This document shows, piece by piece, positions 2,208 to 3,631 of a stretch of DNA of 6,116 bases. Both the position numbers and the translations under genes were made by a program. The notes beneath the pieces are model-generated. The model had not been told where the DNA came from and ran no database searches. It was given only the letters and a program-made list of their open reading frames with translations. Source of the stretch: a virus (taxonomy: Duplodnaviria > Heunggongvirae > Uroviricota > Caudoviricetes); IMG/VR virus record IMGVR_UViG_2695420403_000002, positions 1 through 6,116 of that record; one strand, given 5' to 3'. Numbering within the stretch: the stretch's first letter is position 1; every line of letters begins with the position of its first letter.

Positions 2208-2212
2208 TAAAA

Positions 2213-2233
2213 TACGCCCCATGCAGGGGCGTA
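2213..2233. terminator. Bidirectional intrinsic terminator between convergent Q and KAP NTPase genes
   Basis: Perfect 8-bp stem TACGCCCC (2213-2220) / GGGGCGTA (2226-2233) with 5-nt loop ATGCA. Flanked by AATAAAA upstream and TTATTTA downstream, so either strand has a U-rich 3' tail. Lies in the 30-nt gap between the Q stop (2207) and the KAP stop (2238-2240). Confidence 0.6.
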
Positions 2234-2237
2234 TTAT

Positions 2238-3569
2238 TTACTGAATGAATGACATTTGATTGATATATTTTATCAATAACTCTCTGGGTGTAGTACTCCA
2301 AAAATTTAGGTGGTCATAATCAGTATAAACTTTGGTGAATCTTTTTAGTTCTTCATCACTTTTAGGAGCAAATCGCTCATTAAGAGTAATACTGTCTTTA
2401 ATTATTCCAAAGAATACAATTGATATTTTAGGGATTTTCGAACTCATCTCATAAGAATAAGGTATCTCTTTTATTTTAAGCAGGTCTGCTAAATAAGATA
2501 TAGATTCAGCGGTAATTTCGTGTTTTAGTTTTTCCTTGTCACCAAAGCAATGTATGAAGACAGCTACGACAAAGATCATATTTATAAAACGATCACTACT
2601 GTTGTCTTCATTGTCGTTTAACAGTTGAAAAATGTTAAGATTGCGTGAAAATGTTTGTGTTTCACGTAATGATAAGTTGGTTCGTTGAATTAAATCACGG
2701 ATAAAATAACCTGATAAGCTATTGATTTCATTTAATGATCTTGTTTTTTCTACAAGGTAATTCCAATATATAACAGAGGCTTTACATACGTCGTGACCAT
2801 TTATCAAACATGTATCTGGAAGCGTGATGGTATATTTTATAAACTTGTCAAGATACTTTTGTGAGTTAATACTATAACCATAAATATGATTTATCGATGC
2901 TCTTAATTGTTCTGTGTTTGTAACTAAAATAAAAAAGACATTATTGATGTCAAAAATGTGTTTTATTGTTTCAATGACATTTGTTGAAAAACTCGGCTTA
3001 CATCGATCTAATTCATCAATTATAATTACTATCTTTTGATTTTCTGAAATACTTTCGATGCAAGATTTAAGTGAATTTATGTTTTTCTCTGATTCCATAT
3101 GGTCTTCAAGCAAACTTTCAATAGTCCCATCTATTGCTGCATTGCTTGCTTTCTTCATCGCATCTTGGAATTCTTCGGCAACTTCACTAGCCTCCTGTCG
3201 TAAAAACCAACCTGCACCAGCTTTTAGTACAGTTTTTAAACCAAATCGAATTGCAGGAAGAGACCTCTTAATGAAGTGTTGTTTTTCTTCCTCAGGCAAA
3301 ATGCTGGCAATTGCAGAGGTTATGAGAAGTAATGGAGATTCTGCATGATCCCCTTTAAAGGCATCAATATAAACAACTTTAGATTCGGGTTCTTGCTCAA
3401 TAATGAGATTTTTCAGTTTGATACTAAATTCTGATTTCCCTGTTCCCCATGCGCCATCTATTACCAGTGGTGAAATGTCTGCCTCTGGTTTTAGCAACTT
3501 GATGATATTTTCAGCGATGTTTCTTCGTTGGAACTCGTCACGTTCAGTGAACGATAGTGTATCTAACAT
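2238..3569 (-). CDS. KAP-family P-loop NTPase, candidate phage-exclusion / abortive-infection protein
   Basis: 443 aa. Walker A GAWGTGKS (residues 39-46, nt 3432-3455). Walker B with the KAP signature IIIDELDRC (residues 182-190, nt 3000-3026), followed by FFILVTNTEQL. N-terminal FQRRNIAENIIKLL precedes the P-loop as in KAP NTPases. AGGAG lies 16 nt upstream of the ATG on the minus strand. About 28-30% GC in sampled lines versus about 57% in a sampled line of the DUF968 gene. Confidence 0.8.
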   Translation of the reverse strand: MLDTLSFTERDEFQRRNIAENIIKLLKPEADISPLVIDGAWGTGKSEFSIKLKNLIIEQEPESKVVYIDAFKGDHAESPLLLITSAIASILPEEEKQHFIKRSLPAIRFGLKTVLKAGAGWFLRQEASEVAEEFQDAMKKASNAAIDGTIESLLEDHMESEKNINSLKSCIESISENQKIVIIIDELDRCKPSFSTNVIETIKHIFDINNVFFILVTNTEQLRASINHIYGYSINSQKYLDKFIKYTITLPDTCLINGHDVCKASVIYWNYLVEKTRSLNEINSLSGYFIRDLIQRTNLSLRETQTFSRNLNIFQLLNDNEDNSSDRFINMIFVVAVFIHCFGDKEKLKHEITAESISYLADLLKIKEIPYSYEMSSKIPKISIVFFGIIKDSITLNERFAPKSDEELKRFTKVYTDYDHLNFWSTTPRELLIKYINQMSFIQ

Positions 3570-3631
3570 AATATAAACCTGTTAACTCCTACAGTAAAAA
3601 ACGAATAATACGACTTTGGGATTAAAAATCA

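Follow-up and report, generated by a model that had tools for sequence, protein, structure and literature searches.

The 6,116-nucleotide stretch of DNA analysed here (IMG/VR record IMGVR_UViG_2695420403_000002, positions 1 to 6,116; hereafter the window) comes from a lambdoid prophage of the SfII/SfV/cdtI type and represents its late-regulatory region. Its genes lie in the order KilA-N, DUF968, the late antiterminator gene Q, a gene for a KAP-family P-loop NTPase on the opposite strand, a holin gene, and a lysozyme stump that is fused to tail genes. The KAP gene occupies an AT-rich block between Q and a putative late promoter, and it is this block with which we are mainly concerned. An initial annotation had described positions 2208-3630 as an AT-rich island on the opposite strand, bounded by two terminator hairpins, and had taken its composition and reversed orientation as the mark of a horizontally acquired insertion rather than an ancestral phage gene. 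The coordinates of all features are collected in Table 1.

When the window was compared with related phages, homology broke off at 2183 and 3624 in cdtI and in the prophages L010, L005, and L006, and it resumed at 3623 in mEp460_4F5 and at 3625-3635 in SfII, L007, L008, and L009. Among the relatives that share the DUF968-Q flank and the promoter segment downstream are ones in which the site is empty and others in which it is filled differently, which supports the claim that the KAP gene is an acquired accessory gene and not an ancestral one. Related prophages in which Q is followed directly by the late promoter, which had been suggested as a way of defining the boundaries, do exist: in the two E. 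coli prophages L005 and L006, the Q stop codon directly abuts the homologue of 3624-3715. For a wider survey, IMG/VR was searched with an exact, invariant 26-mer from the right flank (3663-3688), and Q was then located upstream of each match. This yielded at least 119 loci with Q upstream, of which 104 were viral contigs; frequencies among them are not population estimates, and the counts given here and below are those among the loci listed. The slot was empty at 15 of the 119 loci (L005, L006, and 13 viral contigs). The occupied loci held at least 29 unrelated cargo clusters, defined by 70% blastn coverage, which ranged from 485 to 3740 bp in length and from 0.295 to 0.421 in GC content, and in 27 of the 29 clusters every open reading frame (ORF) was on the minus strand. 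The sequences that flank the slot match 3828 of 5426 complete E. coli genomes.

Three further types of cargo were found beyond these clusters, namely a TIR and caspase pair (a caspase-family protein with a TIR-domain protein), a TIGR04255 set (a TIGR04255 protein with two hypothetical proteins), and a porin next to quuD. The slots of SfII and cdtI each contain two minus-strand ORFs, and the other minus-strand occupants include an SDH-family protease of the Clp fold and a DUF6731 protein with a partner. Alternative cargo at the same site, which the initial annotation had proposed to look for, is therefore abundant, and the observation that would have spoken against acquisition (a gene of host-like composition carried by all related prophages) was not made.

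The composition of the block is much as described. The GC content of 2208-3630 is 0.329, versus 0.534 in the rest of the window (z = 13.5), and the original hand counts of 28-30% in the KAP gene and 57% in the DUF968 gene are close to the computed values. A sliding-window calculation ruled out uniform GC content: 200-nt windows within the block are mostly at 0.25-0.35 and rise to 0.38-0.41 between about 3100 and 3500. The values of about 0.41 near 3100-3300 come from windows that straddle the NTPase core of the KAP gene, and the last two windows that lie fully inside the block (3201-3400 and 3301-3500) are at 0.38-0.39. Maximum-likelihood segmentation under the Bayesian information criterion gave four segments with breaks at 1980, 3635, and 4780, and with GC contents, from left to right, of 0.529, 0.334, 0.503, and 0.597. 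The right edge is sharp; the break at 3635 is within 5 nt of the annotated end at 3630, just before the putative late promoter, and homology with other phages restarts at 3623-3635. The left edge is stepped. GC content drops twice, from 55% to 41% where Q begins and after that to 33%, and the best break, at about 1980, lies within Q. In terms of composition, the statement that low GC begins right after the Q stop codon thus does not hold, as Q itself is already at 41%. By homology, the left edge of the cassette is at about 2184, 8 codons before the Q stop.

The cassette is present or absent among close relatives at a single site, and its GC content of 0.33 is atypical beside the 0.51-0.55 of its neighbours; both are properties by which a moron in the Hendrix/Juhala sense, an exchangeable accessory cassette in a phage genome, is recognized. 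The site combines conserved flanks with highly variable content (at least 29 clusters and three further types), as a hotspot does. We conclude with high confidence that lambdoid prophages of the SfII/SfV/cdtI/DLP12 type have a hypervariable slot for accessory genes, of which the interval from about 2184 to 3623 is one allele. When lambdoid phages meet, homologous recombination in the conserved body of Q on one side and in the conserved promoter segment on the other could exchange the cargo.

Table 1. Features of the slot, its flanks, and the remainder of the window
Feature	Coordinates	Strand	GC content	Remarks
Exchangeable cassette (moron)	2184-3623		0.33	Delimited by homology breakpoints versus phages with other cargo or none
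KAP-family P-loop NTPase gene	2238-3569	-	0.328	443 aa; sole gene in cassette; GC at third codon positions (GC3) 0.268
KAP upstream region	3570-3623	-		Cassette-specific; presumed promoter and 5' untranslated region
10-bp GC-rich hairpin	2211-2235			AATACGCCCC-ATGCA-GGGGCGTATT; read from sequence
Late antiterminator Q gene	1842-2207	+	0.409	121 aa; PF06530, E 2.6e-51; PHROG 79
Late-promoter module (putative), right slot flank	3624-3724	+		Conserved with any cargo or none
-35 element TTAACG (putative)	3632-3637	+		17-nt spacer to -10
Palindrome GCGGTCCGC	3637-3645	+		Start of spacer; candidate Q-binding element
-10 element TGTAAT (putative)	3655-3660	+
Invariant stretch GTTAAGAGTGGTTACTTCGCCACACA	3663-3688	+
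tR'-like hairpin	3693-3714	+		T-run to 3724
KilA-N gene	18-827	+	0.515
DUF968 gene	829-1824	+	0.552
Spacer	3570-3866		0.421
Lambda-type holin S gene	3867-4193	+	0.511	PF05106, E 6.6e-25; first late gene past module; annotated holin in L001 and SfII
Lysozyme remnant, first ~22 codons	4197-4263	+		PF23840 on residues 21-66 of fused ORF (window 4197-4331)
Tail-gene region	4263-6116		0.576

On the left flank of the slot, the body of Q is conserved (homology with cdtI extends to 2183) and its last ~8 codons vary with the cargo. The mechanically predicted Q ORF starts at a TTG codon at 1827; annotated homologues and the conserved N terminus MRDIQM point to the ATG at 1842. A sequence search of Protein Data Bank (PDB) chains with Q gave no match. 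On the right, the module at 3624-3724 is very probably a Q-dependent late promoter, as judged from its conserved -35 and -10 elements, a palindrome in the spacer that co-varies with Q, and the hairpin at 3693-3714; this supports the late promoter that had been placed to the right of the block. An Rfam scan of the window at E values up to 1, including the conserved segment 3624-3724, found no match.

We compared the palindrome with the Q allele across the survey (loci L002-L010, L025-L143, and L224) and found that the two co-vary in the 119 loci listed, with three exceptions, each of which is a single-base variant. Q proteins of the "MRDIQM" type, to which the Q of the window belongs, are accompanied by GCGGTCCGC, and those of the "MRDMYEV" type (SfII) by GCGTACGC. 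A Q that is about 50% identical to that of the window is found with TTTAC(G/A)ATCGTAAA, a Q that is about 53% identical with TGTTATAACA, and QuuD-type Q with TTTACGTACGTAAA. All five variants lie at a fixed distance upstream of the invariant 26-mer, and in Citrobacter the KAP homologue is followed by a module laid out in the same way, again with GCGGTCCGC. The Q-binding element of lambda also lies between the -35 and -10 elements. Because it co-varies with the antiterminator, the spacer palindrome fits what would be expected of a Q-binding element, and we regard it as a candidate for that element in the PF06530 family of Q proteins. We found no description of this co-variation in the literature searched, which is not proof of novelty.

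The block had been described as bounded by two terminator hairpins, and we found one of them. The hairpin at 2211-2235 occupies the 30 nt between the convergent stop codons of Q (2205-2207) and KAP (2238-2240). It folds with a predicted energy of -20.6 kcal/mol on the plus strand and -18.3 kcal/mol on the minus strand (z = -5.6 and -4.1), and none of 200 shuffled sequences matched its stability. Because it is followed by UUUUAUU on the minus strand, with only a weak T-tract on the plus strand, it is predicted to be mainly a terminator for KAP. At the right edge, the predicted fold of 3570-3640 is no more stable than those of shuffled sequences. The window has just one other terminator-like hairpin, at 3693-3714 on the plus strand, which lies about 60 nt beyond the annotated end of the block, within the segment that related phages retain regardless of cargo. 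The left hairpin is specific to the cassette, and other cargoes show different hairpins in its place: in about 20 of the 29 types of cargo, the first 60 nt past the Q stop contain a strong hairpin, and the mean hairpin energy there is -14.7 kcal/mol, versus -8.0 kcal/mol in other windows of the same cargo. Most cargo types thus bring their own hairpin, which indicates that the left hairpin belongs to the cassette rather than to the phage backbone. A terminator of its own is a further property of a moron, and the cassette-specific hairpin, with its U-tract on the KAP strand, is predicted to provide one.

The gene on the opposite strand is clearly what it was said to be. Its product matches the KAP_NTPase profile PF07693 at 238.5 bits against a cut-off of 20, with residues 15-317 corresponding to profile positions 1-292 of 293. 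The protein also matches the PADLOC model for PDC-S20 (PDLC04956) with an E value of 2.1e-176 over residues 3-442 of 443 (profile positions 4-449 of 450) and, as is characteristic of PDC-S20, the gene stands alone as the single ORF of its cassette. PHROG 8614, a family of unknown function, matches as well, and RefSeq annotates the gene as KAP. The Walker A motif (G39-K45, GAWGTGKS, consensus GxxGxGK[ST]) and the Walker B motif (I182-I-I-D185-E-L-D-R-C190, with DELDRC at D185-C190, of the hhhhDE type) are both intact, and both are invariant in an alignment of 42 homologues with identities down to 38%. D74-H75 and the segment 101-125 are also conserved among these homologues, and residues ~260-443, a C-terminal helical region, are poorly conserved. 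An AlphaFold2 model built on the 42-sequence alignment had a mean predicted local distance difference test score (pLDDT) of 80.4 and a predicted template modelling score of 0.78; only residues 113-128 and 141-156 were of low confidence (pLDDT < 50), and an insert at 93-177 was modelled as long helices. A sequence search of PDB chains with the KAP protein gave no match. The solved folds closest to the model are those of RdrA (RADAR) and BrxC (BREX), and the AAA+/ORC-like fold is also found in Cdc6, DnaA, and TnsC.

The company that the KAP gene keeps suggests a function. Defence models or candidate defence models in PADLOC match about 12 of the at least 32 cargo types, and the loci with defence-like cargo include L029, L076, L080, L111, L008, and L043. 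The cargo of L029 includes KwaB of Kiwa (E = 2e-150) together with a 173-aa membrane protein of the size of KwaA. Elsewhere the slot holds PDC-M53A/B (in SfII and others), PDC-M68A with an HNH (endonuclease) domain, PDC-S42, PDC-S60 (1050 aa), an ATPase resembling OLD, AriA, and GajA (Gabija) next to a C5 methylase, NsnA/PD-T4-2_A, and a ThsB-like TIR protein with a caspase. By these model matches, validated defence systems (Kiwa, TIR/caspase, and others) are among the cargo, as is the case in known defence hotspots. We therefore favour, with moderate confidence, the proposition that the KAP protein is a prophage-encoded anti-phage defence factor.

Several observations weigh against this proposition. 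The slot also carries a porin (L224) and lipoprotein-like ORFs (clusters 2 and 3), and many cargoes (at least 10 types) match neither a Pfam nor a PADLOC model, so the slot is not exclusively a defence site. The role in defence is one that we infer from association and family resemblance. PDC-S20 is a computational candidate only, and we found no mention of it in the literature searched. No nuclease, TIR, protease, membrane, or other effector domain was recognized in the KAP protein, and there is no partner gene in the cassette. Prokaryotic KAP proteins typically have two or four transmembrane helices inserted in the NTPase domain; by crude hydropathy this insertion is not evident in the protein of the window, as no 19-residue Kyte-Doolittle window reached 1.6 (the maximum was 1.45, at residues 325-343). 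Finally, a moron would also be expected to have a promoter of its own that is active in the repressed prophage, and the best candidate for a KAP promoter is a -10-like TATTAT (plus-strand positions 3605-3610) 35 nt upstream of the ATG. A consensus scan gave only weak sites (9/12) near 3570-3610, one of them ending at the ATG itself, and comparison with the region upstream of the Citrobacter homologue revealed little conservation, and no -35/-10 pair in common, beyond the late-promoter segment that both share. As the promoter was not located, expression of KAP in the lysogen is an assumption.

Known systems resemble the KAP protein of the window to differing degrees. PifA, a single-gene KAP system of the F plasmid, excludes T7 from F+ cells. 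The similarity to PifA is confined to the NTPase domain (KAP residues 7-252 align with profile positions 13-255 of 720, E = 9.7e-18) and does not extend over the full length of the protein. QatA gives a partial match (residues 137-287, E = 2.3e-13), and we rejected an identification as QatABCD because the cassette holds no other gene, the genes for QatB, QatC, and QatD being absent. RdrA and BrxC share 10-15% sequence identity with KAP, and both are much larger proteins that depend on partners (the adenosine deaminase RdrB in one case and other BREX proteins in the other), none of which is present here. An identification as RADAR was likewise rejected, as the resemblance is one of fold only, no deaminase is encoded next to KAP, the protein is roughly half as large as RdrA, and the PADLOC matches include no RdrA model. 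Neither Tiamat nor any other named single-gene KAP system was among the PADLOC matches at E <= 0.01.

Two single-gene KAP systems are comparable to KAP by description rather than by sequence. EF_KAP and three metagenomic KAP fusions protect Enterococcus, and protection requires both Walker B and the C-terminal region (PMC13552941). Like the protein of the window, EF_KAP is a KAP P-loop protein with a C-terminal region of unknown fold (PMC13552941); it differs in having two membrane helices and a C-terminal region of 322 aa, whereas the protein of the window has no clear helix and ~180 aa after the NTPase domain. Reve is a single-gene KAP system from a P4 hotspot that provides strong protection (PMC13586616).

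Of 5426 complete E. coli genomes, 50 carry the KAP gene, with 95-96% identity, and in 49 of them the DUF968-Q-KAP-holin context is kept. Relative to the copy in E. coli WS0115A, the ratio of nonsynonymous to synonymous divergence (dN/dS) is 0.22 for KAP, 0.07 for Q, 0.03 for DUF968, and 0.02 for the holin gene; KAP is thus a functional gene under purifying selection that evolves faster than the backbone. Synonymous divergence (dS) from the E. coli copy is 0.13 for KAP and 0.11-0.21 for the flanks, and so the gene and its flanks diverged together. The cluster of the KAP protein at 90% identity has 2139 member sequences. In one E. coli genome (SZQ1, NZ_CP173996.1, locus H24), an IS903B transposase is annotated within the locus match, beside a "P-loop NTPase fold protein"; this copy is possibly disrupted by the insertion sequence.

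More distant relatives are found both at the same site and elsewhere. A homologue with 66% identity occupies the same slot in a different lambdoid prophage of Citrobacter, and in P2/186-like prophages a homologue with 45% identity is encoded on the repressor strand in the interval from cI to int (L021-L024, 8001-9332). In phage 186, the interval between cI and int is part of the lysogenic operon, and the 45% homologue would accordingly be expected to be expressed in lysogens. A search of genome contigs gave at least 80 KAP loci across Proteobacteria, with full-length relatives at 35-46% identity in Serratia, Shewanella, Psychrobacter, Vibrio, and Neisseria. The L021-L024 prophages carry different cargo at their other end, including AIPR, HEPN, and AAA_13 proteins. 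Further accessory or defence-like cargo also adjoins the Citrobacter prophage module with the 66% homologue: in L019 (12240-17258) there is a colicin-domain gene, a GIY-YIG protein, and a pair consisting of SLATT_5 and a reverse transcriptase, and in L017, L018, and L020 (~12280-17335) there is an arsenic-resistance operon in that position instead.

These data bear on whether the block came in recently on a mobile element from a donor of low GC content, too recently for its composition to have ameliorated. The contrast in GC content between the block (0.33) and the neighbouring DUF968 gene (0.55), the small fraction of complete E. coli genomes that carry KAP, and the IS1 transposase that accompanies the SfIV cargo at the same site would all fit such an event. 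However, a repeat search around the block found no terminal inverted repeats or target duplication, only short two-copy matches of the kind that is typical of AT-rich DNA. A 14-nt imperfect direct repeat (86%) has one copy at the left homology breakpoint (2182-2195, ATCTAACATTAGAT) and the other across the KAP start codon (3561-3574, ATCTAACATAATAT); we rejected it as an insertion footprint, since it misses the right boundary of the cassette and probably arose by chance in AT-rich DNA. The dS of KAP equals that of its flanks, and the gene order around KAP is preserved in nearly all of the E. coli genomes that have it. In addition, the homologues with 66% and 45% identity have retained a GC content of 0.33-0.34 (GC3 0.24-0.30) in hosts of 50-55% GC, and all 29 cargo types are AT-rich. 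Low GC is therefore not a signature of the donor; it is a stable trait of this KAP family and of slot cargo generally, rather than what remains of a recent transfer. We consider a recent insertion quite unlikely, and that reading is largely refuted. What survives of the proposed horizontally acquired insertion is the accessory nature of the gene; the block has no mobile-element ends and is not recent. It is an old, swappable allele of a hotspot.

Other explanations concern what the gene does. KAP might be a lysogenic-conversion or fitness factor that acts outside phage defence, for instance in virulence or in signalling at the membrane or under stress, in the manner of other morons at this position (the NmpC/Lc porin is one) or of the stx genes farther downstream. 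The porin and the lipoprotein-like ORFs in the same slot are consistent with such a role, the authors who described SfII and SfIV suggested, as speculation, that what those phages carry here contributes to pathogenesis, and no effector or trigger is known for the KAP protein. Nevertheless, the recognizable cargoes are mostly defence systems, the nearest solved folds are those of the RADAR and BREX ATPases, other KAP NTPases are antiviral by experiment, and the rapidly evolving C terminus of the family fits a gene engaged in conflict. Even the Lc porin is regarded as a superinfection-exclusion device, and we judge a role outside defence to be unlikely. The position of KAP directly next to the late regulatory switch, together with the occurrence of AAA+/ORC-like folds in the replication and transposition proteins Cdc6, DnaA, and TnsC, raises the further idea that it serves the phage's own cycle, in late transcription, the timing of lysis, or DNA packaging. 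This is very improbable, as the KAP gene is absent, or replaced by unrelated genes, in most relatives that share this Q and late module, relatives of KAP are placed quite differently in P2/186-like phages, the gene faces away from the late promoter, and it is unchanged in a prophage that has been stripped of its lysis, packaging, and head genes. Lastly, the gene could be a remnant without function, either decaying or silent: H-NS typically targets AT-rich DNA, so that the AT-richness of the block might mark silenced xenogeneic DNA, the prophage of the window is defective, and no KAP promoter was identified. Against this are the intact 443-codon ORF, the size of its 90%-identity cluster, the dN/dS of 0.22, and catalytic motifs that are invariant across the 42 homologues, and we give the idea almost no credence.

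If KAP is a defence factor of the prophage, its action could be envisaged as follows. In the lysogen, KAP would be transcribed leftwards from a promoter within 3570-3623, and transcription would end at the hairpin at 2211-2235. As the cassette lies upstream of the late promoter pR' and points away from it, the gene would be outside the Q-activated late operon. The variable C-terminal helical region may sense a component of a superinfecting phage, and binding or hydrolysis of nucleotide may then drive an oligomeric state of KAP that stops the phage, perhaps, like PifA, through abortive infection. After induction, rightward early transcription through Q would run antisense to KAP and oppose its expression; the antisense orientation and the cassette-borne terminator could in this way switch the defence gene off once rightward transcription of the prophage begins. 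In its broadest form, the proposal is that the interval from Q to the late promoter is a dedicated exchange site for defence cassettes in lambdoid prophages of E. coli, Shigella, Salmonella, and Citrobacter, that its cargo is shut off by antisense transcription, and that KAP is a self-contained sensor and effector with a novel mechanism. We put this broad version forward only tentatively, as a possibility about which we have considerable doubt.

The site itself has been encountered before, with different contents. The moron of SfIV lies in a phage of the same group and, as in the window, has Q on one side and the lysis cassette on the other; SfIV matches the flanks of the window at 91%. The moron is described as having transcription start and stop signals at its flanks and a GC content of 39.2%, versus 50.3% for the phage (PMC3851460). 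Its cargo, an IS1 transposase and two unknown ORFs, differs from that of the window, and its authors proposed delivery by a transposon and a role in pathogenesis (PMC3851460). The SfIV site was neither presented as a hotspot with multiple alleles nor placed relative to pR' (PMC3851460). In the announcement of the SfII genome, the two ORFs at the slot are described as unique hypothetical proteins. In DLP12-type prophages (L224), a porin of the nmpC/lc type next to quuD occupies the same slot in antisense, in the order DUF968, quuD, porin (minus strand), and promoter segment. This cargo differs from that of the window in encoding an outer-membrane porin and in its GC content of 0.44, and it is associated with another Q allele and palindrome (TTTACGTACGTAAA).

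The hotspots of P2 and P4 resemble the slot in their conserved flanks, their many cargoes, and their enrichment in known and new antiviral systems (PMC9122126, PMC13586616), and a hotspot between cI and int of Vibrio P2-like phages was described by Rousset et al. (PMC9122126). They differ from it in phage family and in position; the slot of the window is defined by Q and the late promoter, and its cargo is almost always antisense. We did not find the interval from Q to pR' described as a many-allele antisense defence slot in the literature searched, which does not prove that it is new.

Beyond the holin gene, the prophage is truncated. A 9.2-kb deletion with 4-bp microhomology at 4260-4263 leaves the lysozyme gene cut at codon ~22 and joined to the 3' portion of the gene for the tail terminator, and it removes the lysis, packaging (terminase), portal, and head genes. 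The intact prophages L011 and L012 are 99.95% identical to the window over 1-4263 and match it again from 4260, 9.2 kb further on. The deletion is shared by L014, which matches the whole window, and by L016, which matches past the junction to 4786; both are draft assemblies. The junction was not found in the complete E. coli genomes or by an exact search of species-representative genomes. The prophage of the window is defective, yet its KAP gene is intact, and the KAP protein is identical in the intact prophages (L011, L012) and the deleted ones (L014, L016).

To the left of Q, the DUF968 and KilA-N genes are backbone genes that are found in thousands of E. coli genomes. The C terminus of the DUF968 protein carries a weak HNH signature (PF16784, 27.0 bits against a cut-off of 26.6; PHROG 96, "HNH endonuclease"), and the KilA-N protein has a weak match to the PADLOC model for PDC-S22 (E = 1.6e-5).

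The categories involved here are known ones, and the KAP gene of the window belongs to three of them: it is a moron, an allele of a prophage hotspot, and a KAP defence candidate. For the window, this means that the AT-rich block is a classic phage moron, and that its gene already bears the labels KAP NTPase and PDC-S20. The edges of the slot are precise (the 3' end of Q on one side and the Q-binding late promoter, as predicted, on the other), and so its at least 30 antisense cargoes amount to a list of candidate antiviral genes with boundaries that can be cloned. The co-variation of the palindrome with the Q allele is a testable prediction of the Q-binding element for this family of antiterminators. 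KAP NTPases have lately been shown to be antiviral, and the protein of the window offers a small, single-gene case in which to ask how they sense and stop phages. If the proposal advanced here is true, this KAP protein would act by a mechanism that has not yet been seen in RADAR, BREX, or PifA.

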